This document shows positions 38,103 through 43,754 of a stretch of DNA of 64,000 nucleotides, in pieces. A model generated the notes under the pieces. It was not told where the DNA came from and made no database searches. It saw only the letters and a program-made list of their open reading frames with translations. The translations under genes were made by a program, and so were the position numbers. Every line of letters begins with the position of its first letter. Position 1 is the first letter of the stretch. Origin of the DNA: Bacteroidaceae bacterium (GTDB taxonomy: Bacteria > Bacteroidota > Bacteroidia > Bacteroidales > Bacteroidaceae); the NCBI GenBank assembly GCA_017522915.1, contig JAFWXX010000044.1:1363-65362 (forward strand). Reading direction: 5' to 3'.

Positions 38103-38627
38103 ATGAAGAATATCATTTTGACAGCAATGTTTGCAACGGTGCTGCTTGTCTTTGCCGGTTGCAGTGAGGAGAATCCGTTTTCGGGGTATAATGCCCATTT
38201 TGTCTTTGACGGTACCATACACCCATATAATCAGGCACGTAGTTTCGGACAGTATATATGTGTAAGGCGCGGTGCCAACATCGGTGAGTACAGGCTTACC
38301 GACGCAATGGGAAATACAACCGTCGAACGTGTGCCGGAGATTTATCTTCAGCAAGGTGTGTTCCATTACGGGTTGGGCGGCCTTATTATAGGCACTCCGT
38401 CGGCATATGGCGAAGGTGCGTTGATGGTATATGATTGGGCATGCCCTAACTGCGAACTTGAGAAGTACAGAGTGAGCATAGATTATGTAATGGGGTATGC
38501 GACATGCTCAAAATGCGGTGTCAAGTTCGACCTCAACAGCGGCGGAATAGCCATCGAAGGAAAGTCGTCACCGCTTATGCGATACCGTGTAATAGATAAT
38601 GGCTCAACGGTAATTGTGCAAAATTAA
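38103..38627 (+). CDS. hypothetical lipoprotein with CxxC...CxxC zinc-ribbon-like motif
   Basis: Lipobox LVFAGC. CPNC-x17-CSKC near the C-terminus. Confidence 0.6.
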   Translation: MKNIILTAMFATVLLVFAGCSEENPFSGYNAHFVFDGTIHPYNQARSFGQYICVRRGANIGEYRLTDAMGNTTVERVPEIYLQQGVFHYGLGGLIIGTPSAYGEGALMVYDWACPNCELEKYRVSIDYVMGYATCSKCGVKFDLNSGGIAIEGKSSPLMRYRVIDNGSTVIVQN

Positions 38628-38660
38628 GGTGCTGCATTTTGCAATTCTCTTCAAATATCT

Positions 38661-38668
38661 TATATTTG
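38661..38668 (+). promoter_or_regulatory. -7 promoter box (TAnnTTTG) for tRNA-Leu
   Basis: TATATTTG 36 nt upstream of the mature tRNA 5' end. Confidence 0.5.
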
Positions 38669-38704
38669 CAACCGCTATCGCCATGCGACAGCACACATAA
38701 GGTC

Positions 38705-38790
38705 GCTCGAATGGTGGAATCGGTAGACACGAAGGACTTAAAATCCTTTGGCATTTAAACGCCGTGCGGGTTCAAGTCCCGCTTCGAGTA
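38705..38790 (+). tRNA. tRNA-Leu (anticodon UAA), class II with long variable arm; CCA not encoded
   Basis: Cloverleaf by hand: acceptor GCTCGAA/TTCGAGT (G1-U72), D arm GTGG-AATCGGTAG-ACAC, anticodon arm AAGGA-CTTAAAA-TCCTT, 17-nt variable arm, T arm GCGGG-TTCAAGT-CCCGC. Near-identical architecture to E. coli tRNA-Leu(UAA). Confidence 0.93.
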
Positions 38791-38797
38791 CTGGATG

Positions 38798-38833
38798 ATG
38801 CCAACAGCCTATACTGGCCGTTGGCATTTTTTT
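38798..38833 (+). terminator. Rho-independent terminator after tRNA-Leu
   Basis: ATGCCAACAGCC/GGCCGTTGGCAT 12-bp stem (one mismatch), 6-nt loop, then a T7 run. Confidence 0.8.
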
Positions 38834-39057
38834 GTGTTCCCTGGTGAGCAAGGTTTATGCATAGAACAGCTTGATGTTGAAGATGTGGGTTTTGCAGGTG
38901 ACTCGTTCTGCAATGTCTTTTTTATGTGAAAAATAGCAAAAAAGCGACATTTTATTAGAAAAGAGTATTTTTTGACGGAATTTTGGATTATATTCGCAAA
39001 ATAATTCTGTGTGCAAAACTGATAATTTTGATATTAATCTAATAATAATTAAAAACT

Positions 39058-40677
39058 ATGCTTATGAAAAAATTTACACTTTTATTTTTATCAATGTTCT
39101 GCATGCTGGGCGCAGCCGTGGCACAGGATAAAGACGATGAAGCATTTGCATTGCAGTACACATCACCCCAAAATGGTGCGTCCGTTTTCAGCGTAAACTT
39201 CATCCAGCTTGGATTCAACAAGGATGTAACAGTTACACTCCCGGAGGGTGGCATTGAGGTAAAGAACACCGAAACAGGCGAAGGCCTTAAACTTACACGT
39301 GTTTACGAAGACCCTTATATGTCAAAAAATATGGTAACGCTCATGTTTGAGCAGAGAACCGTGATTGACGAAAAGGACGGAAAGGAAAAATTGGAAGATA
39401 TGTACATCAATACTCCCGGCACATACAGCTACACAATCCCGGCCGGTGTAATTACAAGTGTTGACAACGAGGTATTCCCCGAGCAGACATTTACATTTAC
39501 CATTGCCAAACCATTGGCCATAGAAAGTGTCTCACCGAACAGTCCTACAACACAACTTGACAAAATTGTCTTCACATTCAGCACACCTGTTGCAGAGGTT
39601 AAGATACCCGAAAGCGGAATGTACATTGTTGACAACTATTGGACCCCTGTAGTTAAAATCAAGGATGACGCAATCATCAGCGAGGACAAGAAGAGTGTCA
39701 CTCTGGAGCTTGAGACACCGATAACCAACCCCGGCAGCTACAATCTGGATGTCTATGAGGGCATCTTTGTAGGCGAAGATGGCGGAATAAATGAATCCAG
39801 AAGTTACCAATTCCAGATTATTGACACAGCTCCATCTTTCTCTCTCAACTATAATGAGGGCGAGAAGGTTAAAGAGCTCGGCAATCTTGAAATCACATTC
39901 AAGAACGTGAATAAGGTTGAGCTTGTTGAAGGTGCAGACCCAATTATTGTTTACATCCCCGGCGACAGTGAGATTGAGGGTACAGCAACATTGTCAGGTA
40001 ACAAGATTACCGTATCATTCGGTGAGCTCACAGAAGAAGGTGTATATACATATGTTATCCCCGCAGGTTTCTTCACTATGGACGGTGTTGAGAATGAAGA
40101 ACGTTCGGTAAGCGTAGAGCTCTACACATTTGCGATCACTGCGCTTGAAGTGGTATCAGTCACTCCAGTAGAGGGCAACGTTGCACAGATTGACAAGATT
40201 ATCATCGAGTTCAACCAGAGTGTAACACTTTCATTGGACGAGAACTGGCAACAGATTTCACGTGAGATAGTATTGAAGGGTGAAGACAAGGATTATACCT
40301 TGACCTATAACTCAATGTCAAATCTTGGCAGTACAATTGAATATCTTGTAAATGCAACGTGGACTGGTTGGGAATATACTTCAACTCCAATTACAGATAA
40401 CGGCAAATATACACTCGACCTTTCACAGATTATCGTTGACCATGCTGTTGAGGATTATATTGATGAGTGGGGTTATCCTGCCAAAAGGTGGCACAGCAAG
40501 AATCAGGTTTGCTCAGGTTCTAAAGCATGGACTATCGTCAATGACGGTACCGGCATTGACGAGGTGATAGGTGAAAACGGAAATGTCAAAGCTATTTACG
40601 ACTTGACCGGAAGAAAAGTAGAAGTTCCAACAAAGGGAATATACATTATCGACGGCAAAAAGGTTTTTGTAAAGTAA
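39058..40677 (+). CDS. secreted protein with four Ig-like (SbsA/Big-type) repeats and T9SS C-terminal sorting domain
   Basis: Signal peptide ending AVAQ. ~100-aa repeats begin SPQNGASV, VSPNSPTTQLDKIVFTF, LGNLEITFKN, VTPVEGNVAQIDKIIIEF. C-terminus is IYDLTGRKVEVPTKGIYIIDGKKVFVK. Confidence 0.7.
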   Translation: MLMKKFTLLFLSMFCMLGAAVAQDKDDEAFALQYTSPQNGASVFSVNFIQLGFNKDVTVTLPEGGIEVKNTETGEGLKLTRVYEDPYMSKNMVTLMFEQRTVIDEKDGKEKLEDMYINTPGTYSYTIPAGVITSVDNEVFPEQTFTFTIAKPLAIESVSPNSPTTQLDKIVFTFSTPVAEVKIPESGMYIVDNYWTPVVKIKDDAIISEDKKSVTLELETPITNPGSYNLDVYEGIFVGEDGGINESRSYQFQIIDTAPSFSLNYNEGEKVKELGNLEITFKNVNKVELVEGADPIIVYIPGDSEIEGTATLSGNKITVSFGELTEEGVYTYVIPAGFFTMDGVENEERSVSVELYTFAITALEVVSVTPVEGNVAQIDKIIIEFNQSVTLSLDENWQQISREIVLKGEDKDYTLTYNSMSNLGSTIEYLVNATWTGWEYTSTPITDNGKYTLDLSQIIVDHAVEDYIDEWGYPAKRWHSKNQVCSGSKAWTIVNDGTGIDEVIGENGNVKAIYDLTGRKVEVPTKGIYIIDGKKVFVK

Positions 40678-40714
40678 TTGCGTAGATAGTTCAGATAACT
40701 AAACAAGCACAATA

Positions 40715-40751
40715 AATGGGCGAGGAAAAAATCCTCGCCCATTGTTGTTTT
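40715..40751 (+). terminator. Rho-independent terminator
   Basis: AATGGGCGAGGA/TCCTCGCCCATT perfect 12-bp stem, A5 loop, then GTTGTTTT. Confidence 0.8.
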
Positions 40752-40777
40752 CATAGGCTATTAATGCCGATTGTATG

Positions 40778-40826
40778 TTAACCGGAGTTCGATATAACAG
40801 ATTATATTAACCTGAGTTCGATATAA
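40778..40826 (+). repeat. two 20-nt direct repeats TTAACCNGAGTTCGATATAA, period 29 nt
   Basis: Copies at 40778-40797 and 40807-40826 with one mismatch. A partial third copy, ACGGAGTTCG, lies at 40875-40884. Confidence 0.7.
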
Positions 40827-40990
40827 AATTTTCGCTATAAATTGGTGTGTTTGTATAGTGTTTGTCATCTTGAAACGGAGTTCGCCGCCCAAAGGGGCCA
40901 AAGGCAACGTATGTGAGAGATCTCTTTTTTTGCAATGTTTTTGAGATTTCTCACATCTGTTCGAAATGACAAGTACACGATTATATTTCC

Positions 40991-41304
40991 CCTTGACAAC
41001 ACCGCCTTTCGCAACCCAAACGGCATAACCTACGGCTATGCTACGTTTGACCTGTTGCTGCAAAACTCGTCGATAACAAAACAAAGGGGTCATTGACTCG
41101 TTTTGCCTTTCGTGCACCGCAAGGCATCACTTTCAGCGATGCTGCCTGCAACGTTCACTGCAAAACTCGTCTATAACAAAACCATGTTTTGTCATTCTAT
41201 ATTTGCACTGTCATTGACTCGTTTTGCTTTTCGTGCACCGCAGGGCATCACTTCCAGCGATGCTGCCTGCGACGTTCACTGCAAAACTTGTCGATAACAA
41301 AACC
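40991..41304 (+). repeat. three tandem 93-nt hairpin-forming units (40991-41083, 41091-41183, 41212-41304)
   Basis: Units 2 and 3 differ at 6 of 93 positions. Unit 1 is diverged but colinear. Each has an apical 5-bp stem with a 9-nt loop AC.T.C.GC and ends TGCAAAACTYGTCNATAACAAAAC. Confidence 0.85.
41198..41205 (+). promoter_or_regulatory. -7 promoter box (TAnnTTTG) immediately upstream of repeat unit 3
   Basis: TATATTTG (the same octamer as the tRNA-Leu promoter) ends 6 nt before the unit 3 start at 41212. Confidence 0.45.
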
Positions 41305-41376
41305 GCGAACAGAGATTTTTCCGGGCAAGCCCTCAACAACACGTCTCCGTTGCTATGCTCTGTATAGTACAGATGT

Positions 41377-41407
41377 AAAAAAAGGACGGTTATGCCGTCC
41401 TTTTTTT
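41377..41407. terminator. bidirectional terminator (A7-stem-loop-T7)
   Basis: AAAAAAAGGACGG-TTATG-CCGTCCTTTTTTT, 19 nt beyond the stop of the minus-strand operon (41426). Confidence 0.85.
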
Positions 41408-41425
41408 ACATATATATAACCCTTG

Positions 41426-42589
41426 TTACTCTTCTTGGTCAAGGTAGTAGAGGTCGCCCGACATAATCTGCTTGACGCGCATAATCACCTCGTTGTTCTC
41501 TAAGTTGAGCGATACTGCACGTCCTTCCGGCTCAATGAGAACAATTTTTGGAGTGCTCTCTACCTTGTACAGTTTTGCTGCAGGTGATTCTGCTCCGGTA
41601 GCATCGCATGCGTGTATCCAGCCTTCGAGGTCTGTACCGTTGCTCTTGACTGTCTCTTTCCATGCAGCTGCATTGCTGTCAAGAGCAAAACTTACAATTA
41701 CAAACTGGCCGTTGCTGCTCTTGATGGTTTCGTACAGTTCCTTCATTATAGCAAGCATAGCCGGAGATTTCTCGCAACCGCTTGCCCAGAAGTTAAGCAC
41801 TACATATTTGCCACGGTAGTCACTCAAGCGTTTCTTCTCGCCACTGAGCAGTGGCAGTGTAATGTCAGGCACTTCGTTGCCGACCTTCATGCTGTTCGAA
41901 AGCACTTTGTTGCGCAATGACAGGTAGTAGGGGTGGTTTCCCAATGACACAGCTATTGCTTTTGTCATCTGGTCGGCATAGCCTTCGCTGAGATTCGGCA
42001 GCAATGTATGTTCAATCTCAAACGGTGTCATCGGAGAAGAGTTATGGTTTATAAGGAACCTTATGGCCTCAGCCTCTGTCTTAATGGCCTCTCTTGCCTT
42101 AATGCTCTTTACTGTACTCTTGCCTTCACTGCTCTGCAGCCAATCGCTTCCATTAGCTGCTGCAAGAGCTTCTGTCTGTGTATCGACTCTTTTTTGCCCG
42201 GCATCTCTGATTGCCATGTATTCTGCGTATGCATCATTGGTCGGGGTGCCTGTAACAGTGCTCTCTTCCGGTGCTTCGGCAGAGACTGTGTTTACATTGA
42301 CCTCGCCTGGTTCTACAAACAGCCTGATGCCTTTTTCGCCTATTCCTTTTATGGTGTATAGCATCACCGGCTCACCGGCTGCAATTTCATGTGTGAAAAG
42401 ATACTTTCCCTTTTTCACTTTCGATACGGCAACTTCTCTTTCCTGGCCGAACTCATCGGCGATTACAAGGCTGACTTTCTTTATTTTCTTGCCGTCTGCA
42501 ATGTTGCCGTTTATTATGCATGTTCCTTGTGCACCGGCCGAAATGCAGGATGCAACAACTATTATTGCCGAAAATAATCTCTTTAGCAT
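41426..42589 (-). CDS. TlpA/AhpC-TSA-like thioredoxin-fold protein with DUF4369-like N-terminal domain; active site degenerate (CEKS)
   Basis: Start chosen at MLKRLFSAIIVVASCISAGAQG (ATG 42589). The Trx motif reads NFWASGCEKSP where paralogs have FWASWC(G/A)PC. The cis-Pro region STPKIVLIEPEG is retained. Confidence 0.75.
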   Translation of the reverse strand: MLKRLFSAIIVVASCISAGAQGTCIINGNIADGKKIKKVSLVIADEFGQEREVAVSKVKKGKYLFTHEIAAGEPVMLYTIKGIGEKGIRLFVEPGEVNVNTVSAEAPEESTVTGTPTNDAYAEYMAIRDAGQKRVDTQTEALAAANGSDWLQSSEGKSTVKSIKAREAIKTEAEAIRFLINHNSSPMTPFEIEHTLLPNLSEGYADQMTKAIAVSLGNHPYYLSLRNKVLSNSMKVGNEVPDITLPLLSGEKKRLSDYRGKYVVLNFWASGCEKSPAMLAIMKELYETIKSSNGQFVIVSFALDSNAAAWKETVKSNGTDLEGWIHACDATGAESPAAKLYKVESTPKIVLIEPEGRAVSLNLENNEVIMRVKQIMSGDLYYLDQEE

Positions 42590-42602
42590 AACTATAATCT
42601 TT

Positions 42603-43754
42603 TTATTTGTCTGCACCGTCAACGATGCCTTTCAGTTTCTTTACCATCTCTTCGCCTCTGAGGCCGAACTCTAAGACATTACCGTCCGGGTCTATGAGTG
42701 CAGTGAACGGCACGCCTTTTACGTTGAAGAACTTTATTCCCTCACTGTTCCACCCCTTAAGCGTTGATATGTGTATCCAGTTCTTGTGTGTAAGCTGGTT
42801 CTTTGCAATGCAGTTTACCCAGTCGTCCATCTCGCTGTCTATCGAATAGCTCAGGACAACAAGGTTTTCGCAGTTTTCGGAATACGCAAGTGCTTCTTTA
42901 AGGAACGGTATCTCGCGGCGGCATGGTGCGCACCAGCTTGCCCAGAAGTCTATGAATACATACTTGCCCTTGAAATCGGAAAGTGAAAGCTCTTTGCCGT
43001 CGGGGGTGCGTCCGCTTATGTCAGGAGCAGGAGAGCCCTCCTTGAGGTTGGCCGAACGAATTTCGTTGACCAGCTCCTTGTACATTGTCTCTCTATGCAG
43101 TTCCTGCGGTATGGCATCAAGGAACTCCTGGATTTTGTCGGTGGTGAACATAGGGAGCATGGCATATTTAATTATATACAGCACTACCGGTGAGTCGATA
43201 TGCCGGTATATGAAGTCCATGATAGCTACCTTGAAGTGCATGTTGTTCACATAGAAAGTAGGTGATGTGTACTTCATCTCTGCTTCGGGCTTGCCCTTGA
43301 TTTCATCGGGAATGGTCTCGTATGCAGCTTTCATGCGTGCCTTGCTCTCATTGATGCATCTGTTGTTCAGGTCGATATATGCCTGATTGATATCATTGCA
43401 TGGAGTACCGCCAGTTTTGGCTGCTACCGGGTATGCTGCATCGAACGGGCCGACAACAATCTCGCCTTCTTCAAGGAATAACTGTATAGCTCCGTTGTCG
43501 AAGCCTGTTATGTTGCACAGCGTAAGCTCTTCTGGGGCAGTGCCCTCGAAAGTAAATTTGCCTTCCTTGACAGGTGAAGTTGCTATCACGGTCTGTACAC
43601 CGTCAACAAGCAACTCAAGCCTGACTTCCTTGACAGAATCATTGCTGTAACATAGCTTGTTGCTGACCATTTCGCCCTTTATGACGAATTTTCTCTCTTG
43701 TGCAGTGCCGAGTGCTGCAAAGGTCAGCAATGTCAATACTAATAACTTTCTCAT
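42603..43754 (-). CDS. TlpA-like thiol-disulfide oxidoreductase with DUF4369-like N-terminal domain
   Basis: 383 aa. Signal peptide. DFWASWCAPCRREIP active site. Confidence 0.8.
   Translation of the reverse strand: MRKLLVLTLLTFAALGTAQERKFVIKGEMVSNKLCYSNDSVKEVRLELLVDGVQTVIATSPVKEGKFTFEGTAPEELTLCNITGFDNGAIQLFLEEGEIVVGPFDAAYPVAAKTGGTPCNDINQAYIDLNNRCINESKARMKAAYETIPDEIKGKPEAEMKYTSPTFYVNNMHFKVAIMDFIYRHIDSPVVLYIIKYAMLPMFTTDKIQEFLDAIPQELHRETMYKELVNEIRSANLKEGSPAPDISGRTPDGKELSLSDFKGKYVFIDFWASWCAPCRREIPFLKEALAYSENCENLVVLSYSIDSEMDDWVNCIAKNQLTHKNWIHISTLKGWNSEGIKFFNVKGVPFTALIDPDGNVLEFGLRGEEMVKKLKGIVDGADK

Follow-up and report, generated by a model that had tools for sequence, protein, structure and literature searches.

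To our knowledge, Bacteroidota lack both Hfq and ProQ, and repetitive extragenic palindromic (REP)-like elements have been studied well only in Proteobacteria, where they are moved by RAYT transposases. REPs are short palindromes (20-40 bp) that form one stem of 5-13 bp, and in Escherichia coli they are found mostly downstream of genes (PMC3733652); those up to approximately 15 nt from a stop codon lower translation (PMC12306157). The FopS RNAs are transcribed from promoters of their own up to a Rho-independent terminator and contain a single-stranded seed; they are present in 12-15 copies across Bacteroides and are represented in Rfam (PMC11697453). In the present study, we analysed a stretch of 64,000 nt (hereafter named the window) from a Bacteroidaceae bacterium (assembly GCA_017522915.1, contig JAFWXX010000044.1, positions 1,363 to 65,362 of the forward strand). 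The assembly is a metagenome-assembled genome (MAG) of 2.41 Mb in 60 contigs, with 46% G+C and 92% complete. Three tandem hairpin units at 40991-41304 of the window had been described in an initial annotation as either a tandemly duplicated small RNA (sRNA) gene or a family of palindromes resembling REPs or miniature inverted-repeat transposable elements (MITEs). Our results suggest that the array very probably consists of local copies of a genus-specific, non-autonomous and structure-dependent repeat element, similar to REPs and bacterial interspersed mosaic elements (BIMEs).

The fold was characterized using a covariance model (R1) built from 48 distinct full-length copies of the window's own genome, together with an independent alignment of 125 distinct copies from other MAGs. 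The element is approximately 85 nt long, or approximately 100-150 nt when the subfamily-specific leaders and tails are included. It forms a rod that consists, from the base, of a 14-pair outer helix, a 4-bp helix, an internal loop, a 6-bp helix, a 2-nt bulge, an 8-bp apical helix and a 3-nt loop. The internal loop is conserved as GGU opposite GG, the base of the hairpin as TCGA...TCAA with an invariant C.A as the second pair, and the apex carries a GNA triloop, mostly closed by C-G, in 113 of the 173 distinct copies. The subfamily in the window has, in addition, a tandem CGAG/CGAG purine mismatch within the outer helix. Per-column identity among the own-genome copies was approximately 72%, and the architecture was nonetheless constant. 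In that alignment 90.4% of the cells were paired, with compensatory changes in 22 of the 32 pairs (293 cells); the corresponding values for the other MAGs were 91.1% and 25 of the 32 pairs (752 cells), whereas controls in which the partners were slid sideways paired at 27-41% (28-41% in the own-genome alignment). The covarying four-helix fold is strongly supported. Covariation among homologues, named as a check in the initial annotation, was thus detected in both alignments, and the C-G versus A-T compensatory change noted there between the units of the window is real, being one among many covarying pairs.

Non-canonical pairs revealed which of the two strands is structured. One G.U pair was kept in 47 of the 48 own copies and in 124 of the 125 copies from other MAGs. 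Besides this pair, G.U was counted 90 times and G.A 182 times on the structured strand of the latter, compared with 14 and seven for the mirror images A.C and C.U; the own-genome copies showed 53 G.U pairs versus eight A.C. RNAalifold gave -32.6 kcal/mol for the structured strand (hereafter named the R strand) and -23.1 kcal/mol for the opposite strand. R1 scored the units of the window at 71-79 bits on the minus strand, but at 11.8 bits on the plus strand. The minus strand was preferred by RNA and DNA energy models alike for all three units, for example -37.5 versus -35.0 kcal/mol (RNA) and -19.6 versus -17.3 kcal/mol (DNA) for unit 3, and -35.0 versus -25.6 kcal/mol (RNA) for unit 2. Because the non-canonical pairs are strand-specific, selection acts on the minus strand of the window as the single strand, opposite to the transcript that had been proposed. 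The 5-bp apical stem with a 9-nt conserved loop in the initial description proved to be an artefact of reading the plus strand, since the minus strand gives an 8-bp stem with the conserved G.U pair and a GNA loop. Likewise, an A/G difference between units 2 and 3 is present as described, but its pairing is read differently on the minus strand, with U.G in unit 2 and a full C-G pair in unit 3. It is worth mentioning that C(GNA)G triloops and G.T/G.A mismatches are also typical of stable single-stranded DNA hairpins.

Within the window, the three tandem units were recovered with model cores on the minus strand at 40992-41075 (unit 1, 76.4 bits), 41092-41175 (unit 2, 71.5 bits) and 41213-41296 (unit 3, 78.6 bits, E 3e-20), with E-values from 1e-18 to 1e-20. 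They lie head-to-tail in 40991-41304 and share the tail CTGCAAAACTCGTCGATAACAAAAC. The folds of units 1-3 beat those of shuffled sequences, with z-scores from -2.1 to -4.4, in agreement with the long imperfect hairpins first described, and the outer stem GTTTTGC/GCAAAAC is present. Unit 3 is an intact four-helix rod of the 85-position hairpin element. Unit 2 is a tandem copy of it (94% identity including the linker), and a repeat search matched 41089-41183 to 41210-41304 over 95 nt at 94% identity with the six differences already noted; units 2 and 3 are a local tandem duplication of a unit plus its flank. In unit 1, the inner helices are intact and the outer arms are unpaired: R1 placed non-canonical marks in the outer helix P1, and the outer stem was missing in both DNA and RNA folds. 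Near-identical cores of unit 1 were found at C21:11286-11364, C58:5285-5362 and C39:39280-39336. Unit 1 is a chimera, or recombinant, with outer arms derived from two subfamilies.

The units belong to a large family that is confined to one genus. An iterated nhmmer profile of the three units, searched against the whole assembly, converged at 77 copies on more than 25 contigs, and R1 detected 69 copies at E<=0.01. All of the own-genome copies are intergenic and many are in tandem arrays of two to five. R1 matched each of the 24 sampled genomes of the genus, with one to 94 copies per genome, and gave no match in the 58 genomes tested from a further 34 genera of the family or in 16 other families of the order. 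In a pattern scan of public genomes, the hosts were uncultured 'Bacteroidaceae bacterium' MAGs from the hindgut of sheep, goat, yak, buffalo, deer and cattle; a few were of human origin. The genome search suggested earlier for copy number thus favours the REP/MITE-like alternative of the initial annotation, in view of approximately 70 dispersed copies, their variable number, and the filled and empty sites and mosaic clustering described below. The Rfam scan, which had also been suggested, assigned the units to no named RNA family: with Rfam 15 only tRNAs and chance matches were obtained at 38500-42000 of the window at E<=5, and no match was found in seven other arrays at E<=1. A literature search for a REP family described in Bacteroidales returned nothing relevant. 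A fragment at 38888-38911, described as resembling the unit ends, is not supported as a relic of a unit; it shares only two 9-mers, gave no model match (E<=10, filters off) and has no repeat match elsewhere in the genome.

Comparison of related genomes showed that the units are insertions, because filled and empty orthologous sites exist side by side. BLAST-anchored examples are L116/C2, L136/C60, L141/C36, L106/C40 and the near-identical pair L043/L117, with spacers of 30-60 nt when empty and 250-480 nt when filled. Copies are thus gained and lost in short intergenic spacers. In one case (L136:3680-3950 compared with C60:63240-63395), the insert replaces the last codons of a gene and a TAG inside the element's terminal TAGAATGACA ends the open reading frame (ORF), whereas in the empty orthologue the ORF is two codons longer and ends at TAA, showing that the insertion rewrote the C-terminus and stop codon of the gene. 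In the closest relative (G017, TlpA 95% identical), the syntenic array is rearranged to the order unit 2, unit 3, unit 1, with part of module B (see below) missing, and at the TlpA locus of genomes at approximately 60% identity there is either no array or a single unit in the opposite orientation.

The array linkers are local copies of the flank. They often take in the final codons of the upstream gene together with its stop codon, and an array of N units accordingly has N+1 flank copies, as at C10:135935-136150, C4:17270-17910, C26:1540-1920 and C18:13250-13505. Isolated units were flanked by direct repeats of at least 10 nt in approximately 15 of 64 cases, compared with approximately 2% of controls, often in the form X-TCGA[unit]...X-TCGA. 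On C10, a single unit lies between 28-nt direct repeats with two mismatches. A classical transposase does not account for such long and variable flank duplication, and nor does a Y1 'peel and paste' enzyme.

The units also cluster with other dispersed repeats. Module B, a second dispersed repeat at 40802-40972 bounded by TGTCAT...ATGACA and containing an inverted repeat at 40906-40961, has at least six copies of 97-99% identity, on C36, C51, C7, C52, C40 and C30, plus partial copies. A short extra module (TTTTTCCGGGCAAGCCCTCAACAACACG) at 41312-41348 has a 92% match at C52:59507-59543, and the same motif fills the empty site of locus L117. The linker at 41176-41212 recurs elsewhere as well, and the 750-bp spacer of the window is thus a mosaic of several dispersed modules. 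Another linker (AACAAAACAAAGGGGT, 41076-41091) joins units 1 and 2, and this junction is repeated at C59:596-647. Taken together, units insert beside other repeat modules, building mosaics, and local tandem duplication of a unit plus its flank follows.

Several further observations concern these mosaics. At 40774-40826 and 40873-40884, the window carries direct repeats TATGTTAACCGGAGTTCGATATAA and TATATTAACCTGAGTTCGATATAA and a third copy AAACGGAGTTCG; the second of these repeats is the start of module B, and G017 has only one copy. Some units contain an insertion of approximately 50 nt in the apical loop (C31:22886-23017, L160:395-528, L111:5761-5892 and L120:3706-3837), which folds into a hairpin of its own and carries a GGAGGGAGTTC-type motif; this motif is also present in the spacer of the window as ACGGAGTTCG (40780-40884). 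These inserts show that repeat modules have become nested inside one another. Purine-rich heptamer arrays (GAGAACA, GAGCAAA and GAAAGCT on the structured strand) adjoin many units, for example at C39:20012-20224, at C59:300-400 and in the C8/C39 linkers. Ten identical copies of one subfamily are located at contig ends. At C50:18-2095, two identical inverted units flank a 1.9-kb segment encoding a short-chain dehydrogenase (SDR) and a protein of the chloramphenicol acetyltransferase (CAT) family (Pfam CAT, E 7e-15), possibly a composite cassette bounded by repeats. An insertion sequence (IS) behind the identical contig-end copies was considered and rejected, as C50 holds ordinary genes (SDR and CAT-like) between the units and no transposase.

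A mobilizing enzyme was sought among three families. Y1_Tnp (PF01797, of the RAYT or IS200 type) was absent from the own genome and from 21 of 26 genomes of the genus, and its matches in the other five were unrelated to the copy number of the units. IS110 (PF01548), present in three of the 26 genomes, does not track copy number either and was rejected as the driver. The same applies to reverse transcriptase (PF00078), which is present in 13 of the 26 and unrelated to copy number: three genomes (G004, G018 and G022) have 43-54 copies without a reverse transcriptase, and two (G005 and G024) have one copy with one. A 609-amino-acid open frame with an RVT_1 domain (E 3e-27) was noted at C43:1055-1882, possibly a group II intron or retron-type reverse transcriptase.

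The orientation of the units towards genes was also examined, the upstream gene being defined as that on the 5' side of the structured strand. In the own genome, this gene is co-oriented for 33 arrays and opposed for nine (p=3e-4). At 105 loci of other MAGs, 79 arrays were co-oriented and 30 opposed (p=3e-6), or 99 versus 33 when counted per unit from the model coordinates (p=7e-9). Many co-oriented units begin 11-27 nt past the stop codon of the upstream gene, often at 11-20 nt, and in the independent set from other MAGs, 17 co-oriented units and no opposed one lay no more than 30 nt from a stop codon. Between convergent genes (C26, C39 and C58), there are two opposed arrays, each directed away from its own gene, which rules out the direction of replication as the cause of the orientation. 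The array in the window follows the same pattern, its structured strand being the sense strand of a TlpA-like gene (41426-42622, minus strand). At C13:70370-71140, a tRNA-Leu gene and its terminator are followed directly by a four-unit A-B-A-B array on the same strand.

We favour a mobile repeat with a secondary influence on the genes that it follows. The R strand would usually lie within a 3' untranslated region (UTR) or on the non-template DNA strand, and by analogy with the REPs of E. coli, its hairpin probably influences either the termination of translation or the stability of the mRNA 3' end, so that an effect on the upstream mRNA is likely wherever a unit is transcribed. The structure itself is probably conserved mainly because propagation of the element requires it. 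Some points weigh against this account. None of the three enzyme families (Y1_Tnp/RAYT, IS110 and reverse transcriptase) yielded a candidate for mobilization. The genomes are MAGs, which makes copy numbers and gene absences approximate, and the gene calls behind the orientation counts are crude script-made ORFs plus aragorn tRNAs. A canonical terminator separates the TlpA stop codon from the units of the window, and since the array lies beyond it, it is probably only weakly transcribed. Finally, pairing was as good in opposed units (0.934) as in co-oriented ones (0.940), which argues that the 3'-UTR context does not maintain the structure.

The last two points also count against the best of the alternatives, namely that the units are cis-acting 3'-UTR elements of benefit to the host, with hairpins that block 3'-5' exonucleases or stall terminating ribosomes, and that mobility is secondary. 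In favour of such a role, the units lie in the sense orientation and close to stop codons, the G.U and G.A pairs are strand-specific, and the REPs of E. coli provide a precedent (PMC12306157; PMC3733652). However, besides the intact structure of anti-oriented copies and the terminator ahead of the window units, different species of the genus do not share arrays at orthologous loci, as seen at the TlpA locus, copy number varies from one to 94, and the C(GNA)G triloops and G.T/G.A mismatches would be equally typical of single-stranded DNA hairpins. The equally good pairing of opposed units, the lack of array conservation between species and the DNA-hairpin hallmarks argue against host selection on the mRNA as the principal constraint. 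The structure is probably needed first for propagation of the element, leaving a primarily regulatory element as a tentative second choice.

A more far-reaching version of the mobile-repeat reading is that the family represents a new class of structure-dependent mobile hairpin in Bacteroidota. Such a hairpin would spread without a RAYT or IS200-type Y1 enzyme, using another enzyme, template-switch or target-primed copying; it would land preferentially 11-20 nt past stop codons in the sense orientation, make long variable flank duplications that sometimes include the stop codon, and, once transcribed, tune the upstream gene. We regard this as rather unlikely.

Much less probable still is the stand-alone sRNA gene. 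In this model, plus-strand transcription would start from a sigma-ABfr-type -7 box (TATATTTG), read through unit 3 and stop at the terminator, giving an RNA of approximately 195 nt, and units 1 and 2 would be copies of the gene. Both signals exist: the box is found at 41198-41205 on the plus strand, and also at 38661-38668, and the A7-stem-T7 hairpin, an inverted repeat with 22-nt arms that are 91% complementary, is present at 41368-41416. The box sits inside the linker TGTCATTCTATATTTGCACTGTCA, a repeated part of the 'long-form' subfamily, further copies of which were found at C21:11249-11293, at two places in G017 and in several other MAGs. In the other MAGs it precedes 27 of the 130 units, compatible with a promoter carried by the element. 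In the window this linker (41176-41212) consists of the tail AACAAAAC, a mini-hairpin ACAAAAC-CAT-GTTTTGT (41177-41193) and TCTATATTTGCACTGTCA with the box. On the other hand, the box-bearing linker precedes only two of the 51 own full-length units; TAnnTTTG occurs 45 times in the window compared with 35.8 +/- 6.3 expected, so that a single match is not above chance; and no -33 TTTG was read at the usual spacing from the window box. The terminator, although present after unit 3, serves the other direction. On the minus strand, the order is TlpA stop codon, A7-stem-T7 terminator (10 nt after the stop), approximately 70 nt, units 3, 2 and 1, and module B, which makes it the terminator of the convergent TlpA operon; in G017 the minus-direction T7 tract is kept, whereas the plus-direction tract TTTTATCAT is reduced to T4. 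The promoter signals of the putative sRNA thus appear weak and the terminator, as far as its sequence and position tell, belongs to the minus-strand operon. The conserved structure belongs to the minus strand, whose G.U and G.A pairs turn into A.C and C.U mismatches when the plus strand is read (78.6 versus 11.8 bits for unit 3), which argues against a tandemly duplicated plus-strand gene. Moreover, approximately 70 dispersed copies, ranging from one to 94 across the genus, are atypical of sRNA genes, there is no Rfam match, and the architecture differs from that of FopS/GibS-type RNAs. Weakest of all is the proposal that the units are recombination or protein-binding DNA sites (attC-like, or nucleoid-, gyrase- or replication-related) rather than mobile repeats, since, even though the units resemble attC sites in conserving their structure more than their sequence and there are conserved unpaired bases and bulges, the units are spaced approximately 100-160 nt apart with no cassette ORFs between them, their TCGA...TCAA ends do not fit the attC R''/R' boxes, they occur in one genus only at variable copy number, and filled and empty sites are found in otherwise collinear spacers.

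The TlpA-like gene, the last of a SusCD-type operon, encodes a thioredoxin-fold protein with the Pfam domains Thioredoxin_8, AhpC-TSA and DUF4369, and the A7-stem-T7 hairpin behind it has the form of a bidirectional intrinsic terminator. Convergent with it is a plus-strand gene for an Ig-like secreted protein (39058-40677, Pfam Big_5), for which a terminator scan found a terminator of its own at 40715-40743. A tRNA-Leu gene is located at 38705-38790, 2.2 kb away from the three-unit array. In practical terms, the hairpins should be masked as a repeat family and not annotated as sRNA genes, and the family accounts for many of the breaks between contigs in the MAGs of this genus from the ruminant gut. 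It also offers a test of propagation by another enzyme and of gene regulation by 3'-UTR hairpins in Bacteroidota.

Compared with the known systems, the family is closest to the REPs and BIMEs of Enterobacteria and Pseudomonas. Like these, it comprises high-copy (69-77) extragenic single-strand hairpins, predominantly downstream of genes and many of them near stop codons, that form mosaic clusters with short motifs, vary in copy number and keep the hairpin through compensatory changes (PMC3733652, PMC12306157). The mosaic organization is of the BIME type, in that module B, the 41176-41212 linker and the 41312-41348 module are shared with other loci and composite copies exist. The present element, however, with 85 positions, 32 pairs and four helices, is two to four times longer than a REP of 20-40 bp. 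It also has no unpaired GTAG/CGTC tetranucleotide as a terminal tag: the consensus ends are nnTCGAC...GTCAAn, and the only GTAG-like string is a variable internal bulge, G-N-A-G. Unlike REPINs, in which an inverted pair of REPs is the mobile unit, the units form direct tandem arrays and not inverted doublets, same-orientation runs being of one unit (82 cases), two (31), three (14) or four (one), with inverted neighbours mainly between convergent genes. A REPIN-RAYT system has a cognate RAYT, a Y1 HUH transposase whose gene is usually flanked by REPs, whereas no RAYT/Y1_Tnp gene was detected in the own genome or in most of the genus; the host phylum here is Bacteroidota.

ERIC elements (IRU) are imperfect palindromes of approximately 127 bp in Enterobacteriaceae and Vibrio. 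The present family resembles them in its long imperfect palindrome with internal loops, its presumably transcribed intergenic location, the occasional internal insertions and the lack of a known transposase, but the sequences are unrelated, and tandem arrays with duplicated flanks and a marked sense preference set the present units apart. With MITEs (Correia/NEMIS in Neisseria; RUP, BOX and SPRITE in Streptococcus), it shares small non-autonomous intergenic insertions with presence/absence polymorphism, and the ability to supply stop codons, promoters or terminators, as the L136 insert supplies a stop codon. In contrast with MITEs, the arms covary and there are no conserved terminal inverted repeats, target duplications of a constant length are absent, flank repeats being of 10-28 nt in only approximately 15 of 64 isolated units, and no parent IS was found in a search confined to the Y1, IS110 and reverse-transcriptase families. 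FopS/GibS sequences are likewise multicopy, non-coding and found in Bacteroidaceae, some of them near SusC/D operons; identity with them was ruled out by architecture, the present family being rod-like, without an Rfam match and restricted to one genus at one to 94 copies. The attC sites differ in their R''/R' boxes (RYYYAAC / GTTRRRY), compared with TCGAC/GTCAA here, and in the cassette ORFs, of which there are none between units 100-160 nt apart. What we describe is a large, strongly structured and RAYT-less family with a clear sense-strand and stop-codon-proximal bias, and not a new kind of system. By analogy, it appears to function like REP/BIME or ERIC elements, yet it falls outside the strict definitions of REP, REPIN-RAYT, MITE and attC.

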